From Escherichia coli (GTDB lineage: Bacteria > Pseudomonadota > Gammaproteobacteria > Enterobacterales > Enterobacteriaceae): a DNA stretch of 64,000 nucleotides. The first letter of the stretch is position 1, and the number at the start of each line of letters is the position of its first letter. The stretch is from NCBI RefSeq assembly GCF_024298765.1, contig NZ_CP101210.1, one strand, 5' to 3'. Both the position numbers and the translations under genes were made by a program. Under the pieces are notes generated by a model, which was not told where the DNA came from, searched no databases, and saw only the letters and a program-made list of their open reading frames with translations. Shown here one piece after another: positions 5,922 through 23,400 of this stretch.

Positions 5922-6665
5922 TTATGCAGGATTAGGAATATCAATAAAGGTCACATCAAGATCGGTATTTTCATTCAGCCACTCGCTCAATGCGCGAATA
6001 CCACCGCGTTCAGTGGCATGGTGACCCGCAGCATAAAAATGCAATCCCTGCTCGCGGGCTGAATGAATGGTCTGTTCAGAAACTTCGCCAGTAATAAAAG
6101 CATCCACGCCAAAACGCGCGGCGCTATCGATAAAACTTTGCCCGCCGCCCGTGCACCAGGCGACGCGCTGGACCACCTCAGGTCCGGTATCGCCACACCA
6201 TAACGGCTTACGTCCCAGACGCGCTTCAATCCAGGAGGCCAGTTCCAGTCCCGGCACAGGCATGGTCAGTTCGCCCCACGGCACCAACGGCTCAATTTCG
6301 CCCATGACCGTGATCCCCAGTAACGCCGCCAGCTGTGCGTTATTGCCCAGCTCAGGATGTGCGTCAAGCGGCAAATGCCAGCCATACAGGTTGATATCAT
6401 TCGCCAGCAACGTTTTTAAACGGTTACGCTTCATGCCGCGAATGACCGGGGATTCGCCTTTCCAGAAGTAGCCATGATGCACAATGACCGCATCCGCGCC
6501 CAGACGCACCGCTTCATCGAGCAAAGCCTGGCTGGCAGTGACACCGGTAACAATTTTTTGCACCGTCTCTTTGCCTTCCACCTGCAAACCATTCGGCGCG
6601 TAATCACTAATCGCCGCGCTGTTCAGTTTTTCGTTAATCAGTTGTTCCAGTTCGGTGTTTTTCAT
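5922..6665 (-). CDS. ybgI: Nif3-family metal-binding protein
   Basis: 247 aa, recognised by sequence. Confidence 0.8.
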   Translation of the reverse strand: MKNTELEQLINEKLNSAAISDYAPNGLQVEGKETVQKIVTGVTASQALLDEAVRLGADAVIVHHGYFWKGESPVIRGMKRNRLKTLLANDINLYGWHLPLDAHPELGNNAQLAALLGITVMGEIEPLVPWGELTMPVPGLELASWIEARLGRKPLWCGDTGPEVVQRVAWCTGGGQSFIDSAARFGVDAFITGEVSEQTIHSAREQGLHFYAAGHHATERGGIRALSEWLNENTDLDVTFIDIPNPA

Positions 6666-10384: not shown

Positions 10385-10461
10385 TACTGCTCCTGAACGG
10401 TTTACAGGAGTAAGTGTAGACGTTGGGAAATGAAATTTGTGAAGTTAATCCTGTTGTAGCA

Positions 10462-11439
10462 GGGCAAGATTACGAAAGCCCGCTCCCCGTAAGGACTGAC
10501 GCCAGGTAGTTTCTGTCCATAGCTGCCCTTTCTATTCAAACGTGAAATCAATAAGTTCATCAGGGACATCACAAACAATATGAAGACGGGTTTCTTCTCT
10601 GCCGTGACTCTTTTCACTAATTGAGTAACTGTCGTGCTCTGGATTATTTAATTCTTTCAGCGGAAATTTTTCCTCAAAGGCTTTATTAAGCCGCCACCTG
10701 ATTTCCTTTTACAGCGAATAAATAATCACCTCCCTGTTTTTGTATCTTCTCTGCAATATCTTTCTGGCAACTCATCGCATCAGTTGTGATGATTTTTCCT
10801 TTAATATCCAGCATGTTAAGAAGTTCAGGGATAGCTGTAATTTCATTGGATTTCTCATCCGTCCTGATCTGTCCGATGACCAGACTGTGCATTGTTGAGA
10901 ACGCACTAATGACATGAATCGCTCCCCTGCGGCGACTCTTGTCATAAGAATGCCGGAGCGTTTTTCCATCAATTGCAATAACGTCTTTATCATCTGAAGA
11001 ATGGCAGTCACGCATCCAGTTAATAAAGCACTCGTGAAATTTTGAAGGACTGATACAGGATACAACTCTGGCGATGGTATCGTGAACAGGAATACCATTT
11101 TAAAAATCACCATATTGTTTTAAAAAATCGAGATGTGTTTCCCCAAAATCCTCTATATCTTCCCAACCATCTGCACCAGAAATAACGGCACAAATAGTCA
11201 ACAGTAGAATATCCGACAATTTATGTTCCACTTTTCCAGGATTGTCTGTAATCGGGAATAACAGAAATATGTTCCATCAATTTTTTAAGTACCATTTTGT
11301 TCTCCTTAATTATGTAAGGAGTATTTGATCATGTATAAGCAATAAAAAACAGCTTTAGGTAATGAGGAATATCTCAATTTTTAAACATAAAATGCGAATT
11401 GTCTAGTACAAAAAAGCAGCGTTACGTGATCTTTCCCTG
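10462..11439 (-). mobile_element. degenerate ISAs1-family (H-repeat) copy with internal deletion and frameshift
   Basis: Both ends match the ends of the intact copy at 13087..14388 (CAGGGxAAGATTACG... and ...CGTTACGTGATCTTTCCCTG); about 320 bp missing from the 3' part; ORF fragments 10686..11015 and 10772..11113. Confidence 0.7.
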
Positions 11440-11532
11440 AGAGGTACAGGAACTGCGGGAGGAACTTTATCAGGTTAAACAGGGGTTAAGGGGATGCGGA
11501 ACGGGATGTTTAGTGTGCTGAACGAAAGCTAA
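11440..11532 (+). pseudogene. 3' fragment of SymE-family gene, truncated by the ISAs1 copy
   Basis: ...QELREELYQVKQGLRGCGTGCLVC-type tail homologous to the end of 14396..14725; begins exactly at the IS end. Confidence 0.6.
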
Positions 11533-11534
11533 AT

Positions 11535-11572
11535 AATAAAAAAGCCGGGAAGATCTTATCTTTCCCGGCCAT
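11535..11572. terminator. hairpin + T-run between convergent genes
   Basis: aagccgggaagatcttatctttcccggc inverted repeat. Confidence 0.5.
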
Positions 11573-11587
11573 CTTGCCATACATTAA

Positions 11588-12022
11588 TTATTTATGAATA
11601 TAATATAACTGAACATCATATTCATTATCACTTAAAACTATTAGTCGATCGGGAAATGTAAATGCTAATGAAAGATCATATGTTTCATTTATCGAAAACA
11701 AACTCAATATGAAATTTGAAAAATTTTCGACATGAAGAGATATGCAAACATCTCCATTATAGAATATATTGCAAAGAATATCTTTTTTCACATTCAGTGT
11801 ACTTTCAACATCTCTCGCTAGATCATTAATATTTAAAGGTAAATTGAAAACTCTCCTTTCAATAATATTATCGGTTTTATTTATTGCCATTAGCATTTCT
11901 CGATGCCACATGAAGTCATTCTTACGTAAGAATGATACATCAAAGGAAGTGACACCATTTAATTTAGAAGCATAATCTTTTGCTCTAATTAAATTTAATT
12001 TATCTTCAAGGCTAATTTTCAT
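11588..12022 (-). CDS. putative immunity protein of orphan Rhs C-terminal toxin
   Basis: 144 aa ORF starting 11 nt inside the 3' end of the toxin stub; position-based call only. Confidence 0.5.
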   Translation of the reverse strand: MKISLEDKLNLIRAKDYASKLNGVTSFDVSFLRKNDFMWHREMLMAINKTDNIIERRVFNLPLNINDLARDVESTLNVKKDILCNIFYNGDVCISLHVENFSNFILSLFSINETYDLSLAFTFPDRLIVLSDNEYDVQLYYIHK

Positions 12023-12470
12023 AATATATATGATGATCCTTAGTTACAGGGTCATTGATCTTCTGATATCTATCACTTTTGAAATCGTATGTTCTAGGAT
12101 CAGCGCCCGGTTTAGGTTGTCCTGCATGTGCGTGAGGGCCAGGTGCCCTAGGATCTGCCGTGTGCTCGACTACAACTTTCTTACGTCCGTAGGCATCTGT
12201 ATATTCATAATATCGCCCATGAGACCCTAAATCTTCCGAATATTTATAATTTGTTTGTCCCCTTCTTCTAGGATCATTTCCAACGGTCCATTGCCTATTA
12301 GGTTGCTGTGAACGAGGTATGCCCGCAAGATCTTTTGCTTTATTTAGTGCCTGACGACGGTTTCTTAATTCACCACATTTAAGACCAAGCGGATCTATCC
12401 AGCTTACTGGATTAGGCGCGTAAGCATATAAGTTTAGCCCCCCCGCCAGCCCTATCGGGTCGGGTTACGT
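12012..12470 (-). pseudogene. orphan rhs C-terminal stub: last ~25 core codons (..PIGLAGGLNLYAYAPNPVSWIDPLGL) plus ~125-aa toxin tip, no start codon
   Basis: Hand translation of minus strand; in-frame stop immediately upstream of the core remnant; absent from ORF track because it lacks a start. Confidence 0.6.
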
Positions 12471-12634
12471 AAATGTTCCACAGTCCGAGTCGTAGTACCT
12501 CAGAAGGTTGCAGTGCAATCCCGCCTTGCGACATCAAGGCATAGTTTCAGAAAAAGTAAGGAGCAATCACCATACCCCAATTCACTGGGTGCTAAATAAT
12601 ATCTGGTAACATCCCTTACTTCAATTCTATTTCA

Positions 12635-13030
12635 TTACAACTTCTTTACTTTCCATATTCTTTGCGCAGCTAAAAAAGATACTCCTTTGAACCAAGACGC
12701 ACATTCAATAACTTGTTCCCATGAATATATTTTATGTGAGCTAAATTTTATCGATTCATCTTGGTTCATTATCTCAATAAAATAATATCCTTTATTATAA
12801 TCTCTTTTTTCTATTCTATCTTCAGCTCTTGCCGAACGTATAGAAATAACACAATCATCTAATAAACAAAATCTTTTCTTTATAATCGCATCATCTTGGT
12901 TCCATGGATTTGTACTTGCCATTTGTTCTGATTGTTTCAGCTCATTCACTACTGTATACCAAATAGCTTCGGTATCACTTGCCTTTGCATTCTCTCTATC
13001 AGACTCGGATCTAAATATAATTTTGTCCAT
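12635..13030 (-). CDS. putative orphan immunity protein (cognate toxin replaced by ISAs1)
   Basis: 131 aa ORF; about 20 codons of an upstream ORF end in TAA overlapping its ATG (TAAAATG) just before the IS end. Confidence 0.4.
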   Translation of the reverse strand: MDKIIFRSESDRENAKASDTEAIWYTVVNELKQSEQMASTNPWNQDDAIIKKRFCLLDDCVISIRSARAEDRIEKRDYNKGYYFIEIMNQDESIKFSSHKIYSWEQVIECASWFKGVSFLAAQRIWKVKKL

Positions 13031-13086
13031 TTTAATAATCCAAATGTAAATTACTTAAAATACCCTCTGCCTCATTCCAGGCATTG

Positions 13087-14388
13087 ACATGGGAACCCAG
13101 GGAAAGATTACGAAAGCCCGCTCCCAGCAAGGACTGACGCCAGATAGTTTCTGTCCATGGCTGCTTTTCGCATCTTACGTCTTAACCCTGCCTTGAATAC
13201 CTTATCATTCGTCAAAATATTAATAGCGATGTGCCGTATCCCTGAAAATAATTCTGCTGCATTTCCTCTTCTTATTTTGCAGTCGTCTTCATTCATTACC
13301 ACGTCCAGACGCCAGTGCAGCTTATTCTCCACGTGCCAGTGGTTTCGGATTGCTGTGGCGAACTTCTCTGCGGTTAAATCAGCAGAACTGATATAATATC
13401 TGACCGTCATTTCTGGCTCTTTCTTTTGTTCTGCTATTATTGACCGAAAGGAGACTGCCACGCATAATTTCTTCAGACCTTTCCATTCAAACGTGAAATC
13501 AATAAGTTCATCAGGGACATCGCAAACAATATGAAGACGGATTTCTTCTCTGCCGTGACTTTTTTCACTAATTGCGTAACTGTCATGCTCTGGATTATTT
13601 AATTCTTTCAGTGGGAATTTTTCCTCAAAGGCTTTATTAAGCCGCCCCTGATTTCCTTTTACAGCGAATAAATAATCACCGCCCTGTTTTTGTATCTTCT
13701 CTGCGATATCTTTCTGGCACCCCATCGCATCAGTTGTGATAATTTTTCCTTTAATATCCAACATGTTAAGAAGTTCAGGGATAGCTGTGATCTCATTGGA
13801 TTTCTCATCCGTCCTGATCTGTCCGATGACCAGACTGTGCATTGTTGAGAACGCACTAATGACATGAATCGCTCCCCTGCGGCGACTCTTGTCATAAGAA
13901 TGCCGGAGCGTTTTTCCATCAATTGCAATAACGTCTTTATCATCTGAAGAATGGCAGTCACGCATCCAGTTAATAAAGCACTCGTGAAATTTTGCAGGAC
14001 TGATACAGGATACAACTCTGGCAATGGTATCGTGAACAGGAATACCATTTTCAAAATCACCATATTGCTTCAAAAAATCGAGATGTGTTTCCCCAAAATC
14101 CTCTATATCTTCCCAGCCTTCTGCACAAGAAATAACGGCACAAATAGTCAACAGTAGAATATCCGACAATTTATGTTCCACTTTCCAGGCTTGTCTGTAA
14201 TCGGGGATAATAGAAATATGTTCCATCAATTTTTTAAGTTCCATTTTGTTCTCCTTAATTATGTAAGGAGTATTTGACCATGTATACGCAATAAAAAACA
14301 GCTTCAGGTAATGAGGAATATCTCAATTTTTAAACATAAAATGCGAATTATTTAGTACAAAAAAGCAGCGTTACGTGATCTTTCCCTG
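13087..14388 (-). mobile_element. ISAs1-family insertion sequence (H-repeat), apparently intact
   Basis: About 1.3 kb; imperfect terminal inverted repeats; single 378-aa transposase ORF. Confidence 0.8.
13108..14244 (-). CDS. ISAs1-family transposase (H-repeat-associated protein)
   Basis: 378 aa, [32 protein letters not shown]..., matches Rhs-associated H-rpt proteins. Confidence 0.9.
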
Positions 14389-14395
14389 GTTAATC

Positions 14396-14725
14396 ATGGC
14401 TGAACACGATATTACGCCAGAAATCACCATTTCCAAAACACAGCGCCGCTATAAAGTCGGCTATGTCAGAGCCCGCCACATAAACAGCAAAACCTACATG
14501 ACCACGTACTACTCACGACACCCCAGCCTGAACCTCAAGGGCGACTGGCTGAAAGAGGCCGGATTTGATACCGGGCGGGGTGTCACGGTGAAGATTTCGG
14601 AGGGGTGCCTGACCATCATCGCTGACAGTGACGAGGTGCAGGAACTGCGGGAGGAACTTTATCAGGTTAAACAGGTGGTTAAGGGGATGCGGAGCGGGAT
14701 GTTTAGTGTGCTGAACGATAATTAA
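14396..14725 (+). CDS. SymE-family (type I toxin-like, AbrB-fold) protein
   Basis: 109 aa; LKGDWLKEAGFDTGRGVTVKISEGCLTIIA resembles the SymE core [30 protein letters not shown] (from memory); start trimmed from ORF 14375. Confidence 0.7.
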   Translation: MAEHDITPEITISKTQRRYKVGYVRARHINSKTYMTTYYSRHPSLNLKGDWLKEAGFDTGRGVTVKISEGCLTIIADSDEVQELREELYQVKQVVKGMRSGMFSVLNDN

Positions 14726-14727
14726 AT

Positions 14728-14772
14728 AATAAAAAGCCGGGAAGATTTAATTTTCTTTCCGGCTTTGTCTAA
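14728..14772. terminator. bidirectional hairpin terminator
   Basis: aagccgggaagatttaattttctttccggctt between convergent genes. Confidence 0.5.
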
Positions 14773-14776
14773 TTAA

Positions 14777-15145
14777 TTATTCAGGAAATTTTCTATTTTT
14801 ATATGATGACCATAAGTGAGTGATCGACCAAGAGTTTTCCTTTCCGAGTACAAAACTTTTGGAGATTATCTCAATATCATCAGATATACGCGAAGATATT
14901 TCAGAATTATTAATCACCCTGAATGAGTATTTAAATGCCTTTTCTCGCAAGGAATCAATAAACTCAATATCATCATCCTGAAAACTTTCCTTATCTAATG
15001 AATTAAACTCACTCATCCAGCAATCATCAAACTCCGGTTCATCTCTTGAGTCTAATGCACTATCAACATTTAATGATTTAAGAAAATCAAAAAATGACGG
15101 GGTGGATAAACAGTTATCAATTTCAATTAGCTTATTATTAATCAT
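14777..15145 (-). CDS. putative immunity protein of orphan Rhs toxin
   Basis: Acidic ~122 aa protein; ATG overlaps toxin stop in TGATG arrangement. Confidence 0.55.
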   Translation of the reverse strand: MINNKLIEIDNCLSTPSFFDFLKSLNVDSALDSRDEPEFDDCWMSEFNSLDKESFQDDDIEFIDSLREKAFKYSFRVINNSEISSRISDDIEIISKSFVLGKENSWSITHLWSSYKNRKFPE

Positions 15146-15790
15146 CACATTAACCCTTGTCCTTTGAGCCAAACCTCTATTAAATCAACAGCCTTGGATG
15201 GTGTCACATTAGTACCTAGCGTATAAGTTCCATTTGGAGATTTAACATCAACTCTGATGTCATCTAATTTTGAATACGCTTTTCTGTAAGCATCAAATAA
15301 CTCTTTATCCGAACCAAGGAAATCACCTTGTCTTGGACCTATCACATCTCGTTCCGCATGATGTAAACGCCAGTGATTATGTTCTGGATTTTCTCCTCTA
15401 GGGAATAATGTTGGGCGAGTTTTATCAGATCGGGAAACTTCAAACGGACGTCCTTTAGATTTACGAACCGCAGGAACATGATGTCCAGATTCACTCACGC
15501 CCATACACTTCTTCGTTAATCCAAGGGGATCGATCCAGCTTAACGGATTCGGTGCATAAGCATACAGGTTTAACCCGCCTCTTAGCCCTATCGGGTCCGT
15601 TACCATGAACCGCCCGACATCCGGATCATAGTACCTGTGCAGATTGTAATGCAGCCCCGTTTCCCTGTCGAGGTACTGTCCCTGGTAGCGCAGGTTCTGC
15701 TCCACCCCGCCGTGGTCCTTCTCCTGTATCGTGTTACCCCAGACCTGATACCCCGTCTCCCACACGATTTTCCCGTCACTGTCCGTCATC
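15145..15790 (-). pseudogene. orphan rhs C-terminal fragment: ~90 core codons + DPLGL + ~120-aa toxin tip with GHH signature
   Basis: ORF 15145..15825; core part near-identical to main rhs (MTDSDGKIVWETGYQVWGN...DPIGLRGGLNLYAYAPNPLSWIDPLGL); 5' end cut by ISAs1. Confidence 0.65.
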
Positions 15791-15792
15791 TC

Positions 15793-17084
15793 CAGGGCAA
15801 GATTACGAAAGCCCGCACCCCGCAAGGACTGACGCCAGATAGTTTCTGTCCATGGCTGCTTTTCGCATCTTACGTCTTAACCCTGCCTTGAATACCTTAT
15901 CATTCGTCAAAATATTAATAGCGATGTGCCGTATCCCTGAAAATAATTCTGCTGCATTTCCTCTTCTTATTTTGCAGTCGTCTTCATTCATTACCACGTC
16001 CAGACGCCAGTGCAGCTTATTCTCCACGTGCCAGTGATTTCGGATCGCTGTGGCGAACTTTTCTGCGGTTAAATCAGCAGAACTGATATAATATCTGACC
16101 GTCATTTCTGGCTCTTTCTTTTGTTCTGCTATTATGGACCGAAAGGAGACTGCCACGCATAATTTCTTCAGTCCTTTCCATTCAAACGTGAAATCAATAA
16201 GTTCATCAGGGACATCACAAACAATATGAAGACGGGTTTCTTCTCTGCCGTGACTCTTTTCACTAATTGAGTAACTGTCGTGCTCTGGATTATTTAATTC
16301 TTTCAGCGGAAATTTTTCCTCAAAGGCTTTATTAAGCCGCCACCTGATTTCCTTTTACAGCGAATAAATAATCACCTCCCTGTTTTTGTATCTTCTCTGC
16401 AATATCTTTCTGGCAACTCATCGCATCAGTTGTGATGATTTTTCCTTTAATATCCAGCATGTTAAGAAGTTCAGGGATAGCTGTAATTTCATTGGATTTC
16501 TCATCCGTCCTGATCTGTCCGATGACCAGACTGTGCATTGTTGAGAACGCACTAATGACATGAATCGCTCCCCTGCGGCGACTCTTGTCATAAGAATGCC
16601 GGAGCGTTTTTCCATCAATTGCAATAACGTCTTTATCATCTGAAGAATGGCAGTCACGCATCCAGTTAATAAAGCACTCGTGAAATTTTGCAGGACTGAT
16701 ACAGGATACAACTCTGGCAATGGTATCGTGAACAGGAATACCATTTTCAAAATCACCATATTGCTTCAAAAAATCGAGATGTGTTTCCCCAAAATCCTCT
16801 ATATCTTCCCAGCCTTCTGCACCAGAAATAACGGCACAAATAGTCAACAGTAGAATATCCGACAATTTATGTTCCACTTTCCAGGCTTGTCTGTAATCGG
16901 GGACAATAGAAATATGTTCCATCAATTTTTTAAGTTCCATTTTGTTCTCCTTAATTATGTAAGGAGTATTTGATCATGTATAAGCAATAAAAAACAGCTT
17001 TAGGTAATGAGGAATATCTCAAATCTTAAACATAAAATGCCAATTATTTAGTACAAAAAAGTAGCGTTACGTGATCTTTCCCTA
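15793..17084 (-). mobile_element. ISAs1-family copy, transposase frameshifted
   Basis: Same ends as the copy at 13087..14388; ORF split into 16332..16940 and 15803..16156; 1-bp difference (gccgccacctgattt vs gccgcccctgattt). Confidence 0.75.
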
Positions 17085-17089
17085 AAACG

Positions 17090-17555
17090 CAGACCCAGTT
17101 GTGCATAGTACACATGGTACGCAACAGCCTGCGGTTCGTGACGTGGAAAGACTATAAAGCGGTAACCCGTGACCTGAAACAGGTTTACCGCGCGGCCACG
17201 GAAGAAGGCGTGTTGCAGGCGCTGGATGCGTTCGGGAAGGAATGGGATGCACGGTACCCGCAGATAAGTCGCAGCTGGCGGGCAAACTGACCGAATGTTG
17301 CCACCTTCTTCGTGTACCCGGAGGCGATCCGAAAGGTTATCTACACCACTAACGCAATCGAATCGCTGAATAGCGTCATCAGACATGCGATAAAGAAAAG
17401 GAAAGTGTTCCCGACAGATGAATCGGTGAAAAAAGTGGTGTGGCTGGCTATCCAGTCAGCCTCACAGAAATGGACGATGCCACTTCAGGACTAGCGGATA
17501 GCCATGAGTCGCTTTATTATCGAGTTCGGTGACCGCCTTGACGGTCACTTCTGAG
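17090..17555 (+). pseudogene. IS256-family (Mutator-type) transposase, 3' remnant with frameshift
   Basis: ORFs 17099..17290 and 17312..17494 carry ...VHMVRNSLRFVTWKDYKAV... and ...IYTTNAIESLNSVIRHAIKKRKVFPTDESVKKVVWLAIQSASQKWTMP... Confidence 0.6.
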
Positions 17556-17619
17556 AAAGGCATTTACACAGAATGATGGACAGGCTCAACGGGAAGGCTA
17601 CATGCCTTCCCATTTTATA

Positions 17620-17946
17620 TTAATCACCCGGCTTCTCCCAACATTTTATCTTTTCTATTTCTCTCTCAATATCATCCATATCATCATCTCCAAGATCGGT
17701 ATTAAAATTTTCAGTAATAACCCTTCTTATTTCAGCCAACCGATGTGTAATATTTTTATCATCAATAAATTTAGTGGTTTCTTTAAAGTAAGAATTCAAC
17801 AATTTATCATCAATAACGTTCTGCTCTATACCATTGAAATAATACCTTGCAATATTCTTAAGTGATATCAATATGTACTCTACCTCACTTAGAATATAAA
17901 GGGCATCCTTCCCGGGTATATTAATTACATCATTGTTTTTATTCAT
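17620..17946 (-). CDS. putative immunity protein of orphan Rhs toxin
   Basis: 108 aa ORF starting 1 nt after the orphan toxin stop. Confidence 0.55.
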   Translation of the reverse strand: MNKNNDVINIPGKDALYILSEVEYILISLKNIARYYFNGIEQNVIDDKLLNSYFKETTKFIDDKNITHRLAEIRRVITENFNTDLGDDDMDDIEREIEKIKCWEKPGD

Positions 17947-17947
17947 A

Positions 17948-19735
17948 TTATTTACGCCGAGTTATTTTTGCATTATCAGAAAGAACAATATCACCTTTCA
18001 CAGTCAATTCATCTATATGGTATCGAGGGTTTGTTACCCACTCTAATTGCTCGTTAGGTACATCTGTTTCCACATAATCTCTACCTTTCCCACGACCTAT
18101 TTGATATTTCGCCTCTATGTCTACTTGACTGAGTGGTTTTTTATTCGCAGGTTCCAAATATACACGACCGTTATCATGCGCCTTAATTATCCCACTTTCA
18201 GCAATCGCATTTGAACCTTTACGATTAGTATAATGCCGCACACGAGTAGTTCCATTACAGAGCTCTTTTTTTAATCCGAGTGGATCAATATATTTCAGCG
18301 GATTAGGCGCATAAGCATATAAGTTCAACCCACCCGCCAGCCCTATCGGATCCGTTACAATGAACCGCCCGACATCCGGATCATAGTACCTGTGCAGATT
18401 GTAATGCAGCCCTGTTTCCCTGTCGAGGTACTGTCCCTGGTAGCGCAGGTTCTGCTCCACCCTGCCGTGGTCCTTCTCCTGTATCGTGTTACCCCAGACC
18501 TGATACCCCGTCTCCCACACGATTTTCCCGTCACTGTCCGTCATCTCTTCCGGCGCGCCGTTCACATCCGTGTGAAAATACAGTATCCGGTTCGGGCCCT
18601 CTTTGCCCGCCTTATCCACCCGCGCCAGCGGTTCATAACTCCCCGGGTCCCTGTAGATGTACAGGCTGTCTGTTCCCTCCGGCCTGCTCTCCTGCGCCAG
18701 CCGCATTCCGTCCCATAAAAATGCCGTCCGGTTGTACGGTTTACCGTCAGGGCTGATGTGCTGTTTTTCCGTCCGCCTCCCCAGCGCATCGTACACATAC
18801 CGGTACGTTCCCCGCGCTGTCGTCACTTCCACCATCCGGTGTTCCGCATCATAACGGTAACTCTGCGTGCCGCTCCGCCCCTCCTTTTCCACCGCACGGC
18901 CAAATTCGTCGTAACGGTAGTGCACACCACGGTAAGACATCAGCCGGTTGAACGGCACCACGCTGTTTTCTGCCGTGGCCCTTTCCCCCGCGCGCCGCCC
19001 CAGCAGGTTTCCCGCCGCGTCGTACTGCCAGCTCGCCAGATACCCCTCATCCTCCGAGCGGCACGCCGTGATGCGCCCCGTGGGGTCGTAGAAGTAATCC
19101 GTTTCCCCCCGCCGGCTGTGCCGCGTCTTCAGCAGTTCATCCTCGCCACTGTAGCTGTACTGCCGGTCCGTGAACGTCTCCGGTACCACCCCGCGCATCC
19201 CGCTGTATGTCTCCCTGCGCTTCAGCCGCCCGGCGGGGTCGTAAAGCTGCCGCGTGCTCAGTCGCCCCTGACTTCTGAGCACTTCACGGTGCAGGGCGTC
19301 ACGAGTGAACTCGCTGATGACCTCCCGGTCCAGATTTATCTGCTGGAGATGGCCGCTGCCGTAGTACAGATGACGCTGCGTTCTGCCGTCCGGAAAGGTG
19401 GTGGCTGTCCGGTTGCTGAGTTCATCGTACTGATGGGTCAGGACGCCCTGCGCCGTCTCCTCAGTCAGCATCCGCCCCAGTCTGTCGTAACTGAAACGGA
19501 TAATCTCCGGTGCGTCTGTTTCCCCGGCATCCGACCGTCGGCGGCGGATTTCCAGTAACTGGTCTGCCGCATCATGGACGTATTCCGTACGGCTATCGGC
19601 TGTCTCCTTTGCCGTGAGCCGGCCCGCCGCATCACGTGCCAGCCGGTGGCGGATTTCACCGCCCCGGTCCCCGGTGAACACCACTTCCGTGACCGCGTTC
19701 AGCGCGTTGTAGCGGTACGTCTGGCGGCAGCCGTC
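17948..19735 (-). pseudogene. orphan rhs fragment: ~490 core codons + ~105-aa alternative toxin tip, 5'-truncated
   Basis: ORF 17948..19753; homology to main rhs starts at ...CRQTYRYNALNAV; 18392-19735 is near-identical to 20910-22253. Confidence 0.75.
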
Positions 19736-19764
19736 GTGCTGCCAGCGCAGCATCTGCCCAACCG

Positions 19765-19978
19765 CAGCGACACGCCGGTGATCAAAATCAGCGCCAAATG
19801 GCTGAGAGAAGCGGGATTTGAGATCGGCACGGGCGTTACCGTGAAGATCTCGGAAGGCTGCCTGATCCTGCTTGCAGATAACAACGGAGTACAGGAACTG
19901 CGCAGGGAACTTTATCAGGTTAAACAGTCTGTTAAGGGGATGCGGAACGGGATGTTTAGTATGCTGAACGATAATTAA
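19765..19978 (+). pseudogene. SymE-family gene, C-terminal fragment
   Basis: ...IKISAKWLREAGFEIGTGVTVKISEGCLILLADNNGVQELRRELYQVKQSVKGMRNGMFSMLNDN homologous to 14396..14725; N-terminus lost at the orphan rhs junction. Confidence 0.6.
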
Positions 19979-19984
19979 ATAATA

Positions 19985-20020
19985 AAAAGCCGGGAAGATT
20001 TAATTTCTTACCCGGCTTTT
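19985..20020. terminator. bidirectional hairpin terminator
   Basis: aaaagccgggaagatttaatttcttacccggctttt. Confidence 0.5.
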
Positions 20021-20043
20021 GATAACTTAATAATATTATAATC

Positions 20044-20424
20044 CTAAATCAATCTTTTTTTTAATTCCCTTATTTCAGGAGTTAATGCAAAACTGTCTTC
20101 TAAAGATTCGTCATCCAAGGCCCAGTAATTAATAAGATCTATATGATTTTTATAATTATCAAGCAGAGTGTTGAGTGCTTTTACAATAACTTTATCTGAA
20201 GGAGGTACTCCAGAAGATAATAAATCATTACAGACATCAAGGGCTAAAGTCATTAATTCATTCTTCCCTTTTTGTGAGTAGCCATTATTTAAATATGCAG
20301 CAATATATTTACTTAACCACTCTTTAGTTCGATATTTTTCAGGCAGTTCATAAGCCCAATCTTGTGTAAACTTATCACTCACTGGTACACCAAGTTCACT
20401 ACAGATTTTATCTATTTCATTCAT
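20044..20424 (-). CDS. putative immunity protein of the main Rhs toxin
   Basis: 126 aa ORF 18 nt downstream of rhs stop; position-based call. Confidence 0.55.
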   Translation of the reverse strand: MNEIDKICSELGVPVSDKFTQDWAYELPEKYRTKEWLSKYIAAYLNNGYSQKGKNELMTLALDVCNDLLSSGVPPSDKVIVKALNTLLDNYKNHIDLINYWALDDESLEDSFALTPEIRELKKRLI

Positions 20425-20441
20425 ATATATCCTTCATTATT

Positions 20442-23400
20442 TTAGTTGTCGTGTGATGAATTGAATGGGAACGATGTACGTACAGAACCGTCGGGTTTTA
20501 CAACAACCCTTGCCATATCTGGAACTACCTCTGTCCCATCAGGTAAATAACCTCGACTTTTTATATTTGTAGGCAATGGCACATCATGCACACCTGGTCC
20601 TTTTTTGGCAACAGAAGCAATAAAATCAGCAGCAGAATTATCATCGAGATATTGTCCAACTTGATGACCTTTATTTCTGGCACGATCAATTAACTGATTT
20701 GGTTTCATTTTCTGTCCGTGTTCAGAAAAGGTGTGACCGTATGTAGGCTTACTTTTTGGATTTCCCCATTTGAAGTCAGATTTAGGACACAATCCAAGTG
20801 GGTCGATCCATGACAGTGGATTAGGTGCATACTGATATAAGTTTAACCCGCCTCTCAGCCCTATCGGGTCCGTTACCATGAACCGCCCGACATCCGGATC
20901 ATAGTACCTGTGCAGATTGTAATGCAGTCCCGTTTCCCTGTCGAGGTACTGTCCCTGGTAGCGCAGGTTCTGCGCCACCCCGCCGTGGTCCTTCTCCTGT
21001 ATCGTGTTACCCCAGACCTGATACCCCGTCTCCCACACGATTTTCCCGTCACTGTCCGTCATCTCTTCCGGCGCGCCGTTCACATCCGTGTGAAAATACA
21101 GTATCCGGTTCGGGCCCTCTTTGCCCGCCTTATCCACCCGCGCCAGCGGTTCATAACTCCCCGGGTCCCTGTAGATGTACAGGCTGTCTGTTCCCTCCGG
21201 CCTGCTCTCCTGCGCCAGCCGCATTCCGTCCCATAAAAATGCCGTCCGGTTGTACGGTTTACCGTCAGGGCTGATGTGCTGTTTTTCCGTCCGCCTCCCC
21301 AGCGCATCGTACACATACCGGTACGTTCCCCGCGCTGTCGTCACTTCCACCATCCGGTGTTCCGCATCATAACGGTAACTCTGCGTGCCGCTCCGCCCCT
21401 CCTTTTCCACCGCACGGCCAAATTCGTCGTAACGGTAGTGCACACCACGGTAAGACATCAGCCGGTTGAACGGCACCACGCTGTTTTCTGCCGTGGCCCT
21501 TTCCCCCGCGCGCCGCCCCAGCAGGTTTCCCGCCGCGTCGTACTGCCAGCTCGCCAGATACCCCTCATCCTCCGAGCGGCACGCCGTGATGCGCCCCGTG
21601 GGGTCGTAGAAGTAATCCGTTTCCCCCCGCCGGCTGTGCCGCGTCTTCAGCAGTTCATCCTCGCCACTGTAGCTGTACTGCCGGTCCGTGAACGTCTCCG
21701 GTACCACCCCGCGCATCCCGCTGTATGTCTCCCTGCGCTTCAGCCGCCCGGCGGGGTCGTAAAGCTGCCGCGTGCTCAGTCGCCCCTGACTTCTGAGCAC
21801 TTCACGGTGCAGGGCGTCACGAGTGAACTCGCTGATGACCTCCCGGTCCAGATTTATCTGCTGGAGATGGCCGCTGCCGTAGTACAGATGACGCTGCGTT
21901 CTGCCGTCCGGAAAGGTGGTGGCTGTCCGGTTGCTGAGTTCATCGTACTGATGGGTCAGGACGCCCTGCGCCGTCTCCTCAGTCAGCATCCGCCCCAGTC
22001 TGTCGTAACTGAAACGGATAATCTCCGGTGCGTCTGTTTCCCCGGCATCCGACCGTCGGCGGCGGATTTCCAGTAACTGGTCTGCCGCATCATGGACGTA
22101 TTCCGTACGGCTATCGGCTGTCTCCTTTGCCGTGAGCCGGCCCGCCGCATCACGTGCCAGCCGGTGGCGGATTTCACCGCCCCGGTCCCCGGTGAACACC
22201 ACTTCCGTGACCGCGTTCAGCGCGTTGTAGCGGTACGTCTGGCGGCAGCCGTCCGGATTTATCTGCTCCGCCAGACGGTCCAGCACGTCATGGCGGAACC
22301 GGTAGCTTTCTCCGTTCTCGTTTGTCAGCGTGACCAGACGCCCGTAAGCATCGTACCCGAACGCCGTCCTGCGCCCCGTCGCGTCTGTCCGGCTGCGCAC
22401 CCGGCCCTGCCCGTCCCGCTGCCAGCGCGTTATCCTCCCCATCGGGCTGGTGTACTTCACCAGCCTGCCCGCCGCGTCCGACTGGTAATTCACCGTGCGG
22501 CCGTCCGCCAGTATCACCTCCGTCAGGTGGCCGCTGTCGTCATACCCGTAGCGCGTGCTGTGGCTCTGCGCGTCTGTCATCCGTATCAGCCGCGTGCGTT
22601 CGTCGTAGAACCAGGCCGTCTGCGAGCCGGAACAGTCCGTGTGCCGCATGAGCTGCCCGTCTTCGTTCCACTGAAGGTATTTATTCCCCCCGCGCGCATC
22701 GGTTATCTGCACCACCTGGCCGTGGCGGTCATACTGATACCGGGTGTTCTGCTGCAGCGGGTCGGTCACCGCAAGAAGATTGCCGCGTTCATCGTACTCA
22801 CAGCACCAGCTGTTCCCCGCCGCGTCCACCTCCGTTTCCGGCTGGTGCCACACCGGGTGCCACTGTGTCTGTGCCACCCGCCCCAGCGGGTCGTGCGTCT
22901 CCGTGATATGCCCCTGCCGGTCATACACATAGCGCCATTTGCCGCCCTGCGCATCGGTCATTCCCAGTAACAGCCGTTCTTCGTCGCTCCAGCGGAACGT
23001 CGTCACCTGCCCGGCTTCGTCCTGGTACGCCGTCACCTGATTCTGCGCGTCCCACTGATGATAACGCGTGCGCCCCAGCCCGTCCGTCACGCACAGCCTG
23101 CGTGACGCCAGGCTCCACGCCAGCCGGTACTGTTCACCGCTGTCCGTGTGGTGCCCCGTCACCCGCCACGCTGCGTCATCCGGGCCTTCATACCAGCTCC
23201 ACTGGTAATAATACCCTTCGCCGCCCGGCTGGCGGTGCAGGGTCATGCAGTGGTTTTCGTCGTAAGCAAACTCGCGCAGCAGGTGTCCCGTGCTGTCGTA
23301 CACGCCGTTCAGGTCGCCGGCCTCGTCATAGCGGTAACGACGCAGCAGTAAAGGAGCCGTCTCAGGGAAATGCTGATAAATCTGTGTCACCCGCCGGGGA

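Follow-up and report, generated by a model that had tools for sequence, protein, structure and literature searches.

The window analyzed here, a 64,000-nucleotide (nt) stretch of Escherichia coli DNA (contig NZ_CP101210.1 of RefSeq assembly GCF_024298765.1), contains the rhs locus that runs from ybgA to ybfA, which is the rhsC locus on the K-12 map. At this locus, the main rhs gene is followed downstream by Rhs toxin/immunity cassettes that have been displaced ("orphans"), and three copies of the insertion sequence (IS) ISEc1, also called H-rpt, border these cassettes. We consider it very likely that these copies lie at secondary joints and now recombine with one another as direct repeats, undergoing gene conversion and losing cassettes by crossover. 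Each copy joins two unrelated sequences and has no target-site duplication. In the scenario that we favor, it would mark a secondary rearrangement rather than a fresh, independent insertion, and the joint would have come either from a deletion anchored at an IS end or from an exchange between IS copies with different flanks. The copies would now act mainly as portable direct-repeat homology of ~1-1.3 kb. Host homologous recombination would convert tracts between copies, spreading a frameshift, and a crossover between copies would excise one IS together with the cassette or cassettes in between, leaving a single hybrid IS.

RESULTS

Layout and distribution of the array

The locus is flanked by dtpD-phr-ybgA on the left and by ybfA-kdp on the right. 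Read in the direction of rhs (minus strand), it begins with an RHS gene of full length together with its immunity gene, followed by a symE-like gene, orphan 1, a fragment of an IS256-family transposase gene, ISEc1 copy C, orphan 2, a full-length symE-like gene, copy B, the 66-bp end of an RHS gene with a 131-amino-acid (aa) open reading frame (ORF), an HNH toxin remnant with its immunity gene, a ~93-bp symE fragment, copy A, and, finally, ybgA. We refer to the cassette region between copies A and B as module 3 and to that between copies B and C as module 2; the toxin/immunity modules between the IS copies are 1.4-1.7 kb each. The array has the features of a series of rhs orphans, namely, partial core sequences with a PxxxxDPxGL boundary, variable toxin domains, and small immunity ORFs, all located 3' of a full-length rhs gene. 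This assignment is based on Pfam matches (RHS, RHS_repeat, Tox-HNH-EHHH, and Tox-ART-HYD1) and on DPIGL/DPLGL motifs in the translations, and the toxin and immunity roles are predicted ones.

The region is 99.9% identical to that of strain D10 and of many mostly avian isolates. The full three-copy array was found in 56 of 5,426 complete E. coli genomes, at 99.3-99.9% identity, and is thus not an assembly artifact; D10 and APEC O2-211 are examples of three-copy strains. Some 75 genomes of the lineage have module 2, module 3, or a hybrid IS. Module 3 is complete in 61 of the same genomes, and module 2 is complete in 60.

Identity and state of the three ISEc1 copies

An earlier, sequence-only reading of this DNA had described three same-orientation ISAs1 copies in different states of decay. 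Three-way alignment and a repeat finder bore out the homology and the shared orientation of copies A, B, and C, with overall pairwise identities of 95.9-97.4%, well above chance expectation. Exact IS ends were read from the sequence and from BLAST comparison against copy B. The coordinates given earlier were correct for copy C (15793-17084), but copy A had been started at 10462 instead of 10460, and the start used for copy B, 13087, adds 11 flanking bases.

As reportedly described by Siguier et al. in 2015, elements of the ISAs1 family are ~1.2-1.5 kb long and have imperfect terminal inverted repeats starting with CAGGG, and in ISfinder practice isoforms share >95% nucleotide or >98% amino acid identity. 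Copy B has the size, the terminal inverted repeats, and the transposase ORF of this family and resembles ISEc1 at the level of an isoform. It extends over 1,291 bp from CAGGGAAAGAT to ATCTTTCCCTG, and its terminal inverted repeats begin CAGGGAAAGAT (inverted-repeat pair I1). Its transposase ORF matches Pfam PF13808 (DDE_Tnp_1_assoc; 3e-32) and PF01609 (DDE_Tnp_1; 2e-30) and is identical at 374 of 378 residues (99%) to YhhI, the transposase of K-12 H-rptB; the nucleotide identity with H-rptB is 96.5%. The RefSeq annotation of copy B reads "ISAs1-like element ISEc1 family transposase." Removal of a single base, the extra A at 16342, restores a full-length 378-aa ORF in copy C. Copy A is a remnant and is decayed beyond what an internal deletion alone implies: besides a net loss of 313 bp, equivalent to positions 13165-13477 of copy B, it carries an extra A at 10696 (the same as that in copy C), one more 1-bp insertion, and a stop codon in frame. 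The labels assigned by the Prokaryotic Genome Annotation Pipeline (PGAP) are "frameshifted; internal stop; incomplete" for copy A and only "frameshifted" for copy C. The three elements are members of ISEc1 (H-rpt) in the ISAs1 family, one intact, one frameshifted, and one with a deletion.

A tract shared by copies A and C

The frameshift of copies A and C lies within a 511-bp tract that is identical in the two copies and that differs from copy B at 16 sites. Further on, copies B and C are identical over 334 bp in which copy A differs from both. Copies A and C differ at 1 of 486 positions inside the tract and at 28 of 490 positions outside it (Fisher test, P = 8e-8, with tract boundaries picked after inspection). 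All three window copies share two derived bases at sites where most other ISEc1 copies have G; G is also kept at those two sites by copy C of the sister strain CT30 and by the C-derived parts of the hybrid elements of strains E5 and 200177, which are described below. From the alignment, this mosaic indicates that the 511-bp stretch is a gene-conversion tract, and the frameshift most likely arose once and was then copied between A and C. Since the frameshift is common to both copies within an identical tract, their states of decay are not independent.

Single-IS arrays that lack cassettes

The sequence-only reading had also proposed that direct repeats of the IS create the potential for deletion of toxin/immunity modules. 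We built the three expected products of recombination between two copies, each consisting of a left flank, one IS, and a right flank, and searched for them in the 5,426 complete genomes. The synthetic A/C query, for example, comprised 300 bp of ybgA-side flank, copy A, and 300 bp of the flank formed by the IS256 fragment. All three predicted single-IS products were found, A/B in 3 genomes, B/C in 4, and A/C in 8 (15 reduced arrays versus 56 full ones), and the proposal gained direct support from the IS sequences of close relatives: in four of five genomes whose IS was checked (CT30, 200177, E5, and 2014C-3338), the remaining element is a clean hybrid. In CT30 (A/B), ybgA is followed by a single IS and a full symE-like gene; module 3 is absent, and the rest of the locus is as in the window. 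In the CT30 element, the A-diagnostic bases are all present in alignment columns 6-696, and those diagnostic of B are all present in columns 899-1257. Strain 200177 (B/C) carries a B-left/C-right hybrid and has no module 2. E5 and 2014C-3338 (A/C) carry A-left/C-right hybrids and have neither module 2 nor module 3, and their crossover intervals differ, falling in columns 389-804 and 1146-1232, respectively. The remaining 10 reduced arrays are those of EC31, EC12, GPEC1352, GPEC1354, GPEC1356, 21F61, 14EC020, JNE120442, Jnd12, and CT282.

CT30, 200177, and E5 were compared with three-copy genomes (the window, D10, and 64.1). They differ from these by 0-2 single-nucleotide polymorphisms (SNPs) across 6.8 kb on the left side and by 0-2 SNPs across as much as 4.1 kb on the right side, so that four array states occur within a single clonal background. 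Because CT30 keeps only module 2 and 200177 keeps only module 3, the two cannot both be intermediates on one path, and at least one of them must have arisen by deletion. Given 56 full and 15 reduced arrays, it is parsimonious to read most of the reduced ones as losses, and the direction of change would have been mostly loss.

Target-site duplications and joints at IS ends

The sequence-only reading had held that insertion of the IS copies truncated a SymE-like gene, a toxin gene, and an orphan rhs core, and it had suggested a search for target-site duplications. Of the six IS ends, four (A-right, B-left, C-left, and C-right) do meet a truncated feature; the one at C-right, a fragment of an IS256-family transposase gene, had been missed. 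However, when all six IS ends were compared, no target-site duplication was seen at copy A, B, or C, and at none of the three copies was the missing part of the gene present on the far side of the IS. The 8-10 bp duplication that flanks a simple insertion of an ISAs1-family element is likewise absent at five more ISEc1 copies that we inspected, namely, K-12 H-rptB, the ydcC copies of M45 and JNE151685, and the ybgA-proximal copies of O157:H7 and AF40. Lacking both a duplication and the other gene halves, the window copies mark secondary rearrangement joints rather than simple insertion sites. The HNH toxin (12012-12455) was considered as the toxin gene truncated by an IS and was set aside, since its core remnant ends ~560 bp from the nearest IS end; comparison with JNE151685 identifies the gene cut at an IS end as a different RHS toxin gene, of which 66 bp is left.

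A duplication is present at the ISEc1 copy of strain 06-00048 (positions 17210-18500 of its locus). This copy lies inside an RHS C-terminal toxin region and is flanked by a perfect 10-bp repeat, GGATTTCCCC. Once the IS and one repeat are removed, the 06-00048 sequence aligns straight across the junction to window positions 20359-20870, which contain the homologous empty site. Read from these sequences, the 06-00048 copy is natural evidence of H-rpt/ISEc1 transposition with a 10-bp duplication. A genome paper had listed H-rpt as an IS although its transposition had not been observed (PMC3032704). The possibility that ISEc1 never makes duplications was considered and is rejected by the 06-00048 copy; the absence of duplications at the window copies reflects later rearrangement, not nonmembership in ISEc1.

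Other joints begin exactly at an IS end. The HNH module is joined to the exact right end of the IS at three nested depths: the joint precedes symE in strain Res13, falls within symE in the window, and falls within the core remnant in JNE151685. In O157:H7 strain FRIK2069 (locus L003, positions 14643-14723), ~80 bp of a different left flank separates ybgA from the IS and starts exactly at the IS end. The K-12 relics meet exactly at IS termini: the ybfL IS has its left end joined exactly 21 bp into the right inverted repeat of ybfD and its right end fused to a point within ybfQ. Taken together, these nested depths, the O157:H7 flank, and the K-12 abutments suggest deletions anchored at the IS end, which the transposase or illegitimate recombination may have made.

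Two further observations concern the same elements. The FRIK2069 ISEc1 next to ybgA is full length and intact and does not have the 313-bp deletion. The tandem relics of K-12 were also considered as the outcome of one copy inserting into another; we rejected this idea, as the overlap between the flanking relics is ~360 bp of IS sequence and not 8-10 bp.

Alternative explanations

It might be supposed that three ISAs1 elements transposed independently into symE, a toxin gene, and an orphan rhs core and then decayed independently. The truncated genes do meet IS ends at 11439/11440, 13097/13098, and 15792/15793, and ISEc1 truly inserts into an RHS C-terminal toxin region in 06-00048. Apart from the missing duplications and gene halves and the frameshift held in common by copies A and C, this model is contradicted by two other comparisons. 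The junction of copy B with symE is found in identical form at a different locus in Res13, within a continuous alignment of 91% identity, and so was inherited as a block rather than created in the window, and the deletion and the left junction of copy A are older than the split from K-12. These findings largely refute the independent-insertion model, and we regard it as very improbable. A greater role for the element itself is harder to set aside. The transposase, through intramolecular transposition or adjacent deletion at an IS end, might have made the truncated flanks and the K-12-style head-to-tail joints, in place of host recombination. Copy B encodes an intact transposase, a natural transposition is documented in 06-00048, and the nested HNH joints, the ybfL abutments, and the O157:H7 flank are all of the kind that such an activity might leave. 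On the other hand, it leaves unexplained the clean parental-block hybrids of CT30, 200177, E5, and 2014C-3338, which are signatures of homologous crossover inside the IS; H-rpt transposition reportedly has not been observed experimentally (PMC3032704); and end-anchored joints could also have come from independent ancient insertions followed by loss. We view a transposase origin of the joints as a real possibility, though one with a less than even chance of being correct.

The array might instead have grown, with the single-IS A/C arrangement being ancestral, cassettes being added stepwise as IS-bearing DNA (for example, from a vgrG-DcrB-RHS locus of the ydcC/pptA type) recombined into the resident IS, and the reduced arrays being intermediates. 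Module 3 and the main RHS gene are 96-98.8% identical to ydcC/pptA-locus sequences of other strains, IS-adjacent junctions included; the A/C arrangement is present in the divergent strain 06-00048; and the SNP patterns of the hybrids are symmetric as to direction. Growth nevertheless has to contend with the fact that CT30 and 200177 cannot both be intermediates, with the closeness of all three reduced types to three-copy genomes (0-2 SNPs per 6.8 kb) and their minority status, and with the two different A/C crossover points, which imply recurrent events. We judge this scenario to be unlikely. Several points do, however, weigh against recombination with cassette loss as we propose it. The IS sequence was checked in five of the reduced arrays (one A/B, one B/C, and three A/C), and the one in 06-00048 (A/C) is not a clean hybrid, having many B-type and private bases, and its arrangement matches the synthetic A/C query at only 95%; to judge from this strain, the single-IS state may be old. 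As to polarity, if a circular molecule carrying an IS plus a cassette arrived and crossed over with the resident IS, the same hybrids would result in reverse. E5 and 200177 also differ from the window at a second place, where they have no main C-terminal toxin domain, no immunity gene for it, and no adjacent symE. Finally, a dependence on RecA is presumed, and the activity of the copy B transposase is putative.

Neighboring genes and related loci

The features of the array are listed in Table 1. Pfam searches returned no match for the putative immunity ORFs of 144, 131, and 122 aa. In the module 3 remnant that carries the HNH domain, ~150 bp of core precedes the toxin domain and contains an in-frame stop as well as the DPxGL boundary motif. 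An RHS gene of full length in O169:H41 strain Res13 matches this remnant with its 3' end at 98% identity, and the homolog of the 144-aa ORF is found directly downstream of the C-terminal HNH toxin domain of that gene. Res13 thus has the intact version of this piece: at pptA/ydcC, its full-length, vgrG-DcrB-linked RHS gene is succeeded by the immunity gene and then by a full symE and an IS. The part of module 3 nearest copy B corresponds to JNE151685, which matches window positions 12442-13097 at 98.8% and has the 131-aa ORF directly after a 3,879-nt RHS gene. The RHS coding sequence (CDS) of JNE151685 (6591-10469) overlaps the matched stretch (6001-6656, equal to window 12442-13097), and the window IS begins at 13098. 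In module 2, the 5' end of the orphan 2 fragment is directly joined to the left end of copy C, and its core belongs to repeat family D5 (15516-15792 versus 18271-18547; 92%).

Table 1. Features of the rhs array in the window and the evidence for each
Feature	Position	Strand	Basis or remark
ISEc1/H-rpt copy A, ybfD ortholog	10460..11439	-	980 bp; alignment, ends and flanks, PGAP
Tract of copy A identical to copy C 16180-16690, with the shared frameshift	10534..11044		511 bp; longest exact match
symE-like gene, 3' fragment, directly at right end of copy A	11440..11532	+	Repeat families D9 and D10 match symE 3' end at 14633-14735
Putative immunity gene of HNH toxin, module 3, 144 aa	11588..12022	-	ORF; position after HNH toxin domain in Res13
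Orphan rhs remnant with predicted HNH/EndoVII (Tox-HNH-EHHH) toxin domain	12012..12535	-	Pfam PF15657, 9e-10
131-aa ORF, in immunity position after full-length RHS gene in other strains	12635..13030	-	JNE151685 comparison
Last 66 bp of RHS toxin gene, cut at left end of copy B	13032..13097	-	JNE151685 comparison
ISEc1/H-rpt copy B	13098..14388	-	1,291 bp; intact transposase CDS 13108-14244, 378 aa
symE-like gene, full length, 109 aa, ATG 7 bp from copy B right end	14396..14725	+	Pfam PF08845 (SymE_toxin), 1.6e-20
Putative immunity gene of orphan 2, module 2, 122 aa	14777..15145	-	ORF and PGAP CDS
Orphan 2 rhs fragment, 277 bp of core plus uncharacterized C-terminal toxin domain	15145..15792	-	Pfam RHS; PGAP "missing N-terminus"
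ISEc1/H-rpt copy C	15793..17084	-	1,292 bp; extra A at 16342 (frameshift) and terminal G-to-A change
IS256/Mutator-family transposase fragment without N terminus, at copy C right end	17090..17494	+	Pfam PF00872, profile positions 253-313 of 379; PGAP
Orphan 1, rhs core fragment of 601 aa carrying an ART-HYD1 toxin domain (17948-19753), plus putative immunity gene (17620-17946)	17620..19753	-	Pfam RHS_repeat, RHS, PF15633
GGATTTCCCC, empty-site homolog in main RHS gene	20758..20767		Single occurrence in window

A symE-like gene or fragment lies antisense after each Rhs cassette (11440-11532, 14396-14725, and 19736-19978), and these copies are 81-93% identical. SymE proteins, of ~110 aa with a SymE_toxin domain, belong to a type I toxin family, and the K-12 SymE system is defined by an antisense SymR-like RNA and by SOS control. 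The junction of the copy B right end with symE, IS-R|GTTAATCATG, is also found in Res13 and occurs in 85 of the 5,426 genomes. With the right end of the IS lying 7 bp from the symE ATG in both the window and Res13, we considered whether ISEc1 and symE form an obligate unit. This idea was rejected as a general rule: the junction is confined to those 85 genomes, and in strain 200164 the symE boundary meets an island with xerC and primase genes instead. Orphan arrays at the ybgA locus, and also at the pptA locus, repeatedly contain an island with a XerC-like recombinase and a primase (locus L008, 9023-14817; the 06-00048 locus, ~20.8-23.1 kb; and loci L016 and L017, ~7-10.6 kb). In L008, where its far end is visible, it also has a helix-turn-helix gene and ends exactly at the GTTAATCATG start of symE, which is the boundary found at the right end of copy B.

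The IS256 fragment also holds an internal stop. Its joint to the right end of copy C occurs in the divergent strain 06-00048 as well and is therefore old. The main full-length RHS gene and the truncated DcrB-related gene that precedes it (20794-25315) are 96-98.6% identical to vgrG-DcrB-RHS sequences at pptA/ydcC in other strains, and a BLAST comparison of the main RHS gene of the window with K-12 rhsC gave no match. By these comparisons, a different Rhs clade seems to have moved into the window locus, which has no vgrG. Like E5 and 200177, strain 2014C-3338 has no main toxin domain, immunity gene, or adjacent symE (compared region, window 19736-20790). In these three strains, the ART-HYD1 domain, which belongs to orphan 1 in the window, sits on a full-length RHS gene, which is frameshifted in 2014C-3338. 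The state of the main gene in these strains is consistent with recombination between the 1,463-bp core repeats (18273-19735 and 20791-22253) or with a state that preceded displacement. In strain Ec-U9-1 (locus L012, 12226-14390), the ybgA-ybfA interval has no rhs gene and holds only a symE fragment and one intact ISEc1; either the locus has been lost completely in association with the IS, or this state is a primitive one.

DISCUSSION

Orphan immunity genes guard against the Rhs toxins that relatives deliver, and the toxin domains of orphans are held in reserve and can be brought into use. IS repeats that shed single cassettes would change which neighbors a strain can kill or resist, and in one E. 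coli lineage, associated largely with poultry, such shedding appears to have occurred repeatedly. The analysis adds a documented case of IS-IS crossover pruning Rhs cassettes in one lineage, along with evidence from a natural isolate that ISEc1 transposes and leaves a 10-bp duplication. It also carries a caution for annotation, in that a statement of the form "IS insertion truncated gene X" often describes a secondary joint. More tentatively, we speculate that ISEc1 serves as a downstream homology "handle" through which Rhs cassettes are exchanged between ydcC/pptA-type and ybfA/ybgA-type loci and between strains. IS-IS crossover would then add as well as delete cassettes and would constitute a second route of Rhs repertoire turnover beside core-mediated C-terminal displacement, with an intact copy such as copy B supplying occasional end-anchored deletions. 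We think that this broader role is rather doubtful at present.

The element and the mechanism are already known, and the analysis reveals no new kind of either; this is ordinary, well-understood biology, and deletion between directly repeated IS copies is a textbook process. The H-rpt elements that occur in Rhs loci, three defective RhsC copies among them, have been known since the early 1990s. Zhao, Hill, and co-workers reportedly described the H-rptC1, H-rptC2, and H-rptC3 elements of the K-12 RhsC element in the Journal of Bacteriology in 1993. These correspond to ybfQ, ybfL, and ybfD of K-12 and are listed as ISEc1 in ISfinder. The RefSeq annotation of K-12 has three H-repeat relics (ybfQ, ybfL, and ybfD) at the same locus.

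The window array is a longer version of this classical K-12 cluster. The two share the locus (ybfA to ybgA), the orientation, and the number of copies, with nucleotide identities of 92-96%, and K-12 ybfD has an internal deletion and a ybgA-side junction identical to those of copy A, which are also present in strain AF40. They differ in that the K-12 relics follow one another head to tail, have no intervening cassettes, and include no intact copy, whereas the window copies are spaced and the middle one is intact. The main rhs gene differs as well, being of the vgrG/DcrB-linked type in the window.

Arrays of orphan rhs-CT/rhsI modules and their origin by C-terminal displacement have been described by Jackson et al. 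in 2009 (PMC2935791) and by Poole et al. in 2011 (PMC3150448), and Koskiniemi et al. reported in 2014 that orphans can be activated by recombination between rhs core repeats (PMC3967940). As in those arrays, cassettes made up of a core fragment, a toxin, and an immunity gene lie downstream of the main rhs gene in the window, and recombination between repeats remodels the array. The published recombining homology, however, is that of the rhs core repeats, whereas the repeats that would remove cassettes in the window are IS copies; IS elements are not discussed by Jackson et al. (PMC2935791). A parallel in mechanism is found in IS-IS homologous recombination generally, for example, in Aeromonas salmonicida, in which ISAS elements reportedly mediate loss of a type III secretion region (PMC3661141). 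In such deletions, directly repeated IS copies recombine, delete the genes between them, and leave one hybrid copy, as we propose for ISEc1, although the IS, the host, and the cargo are different.

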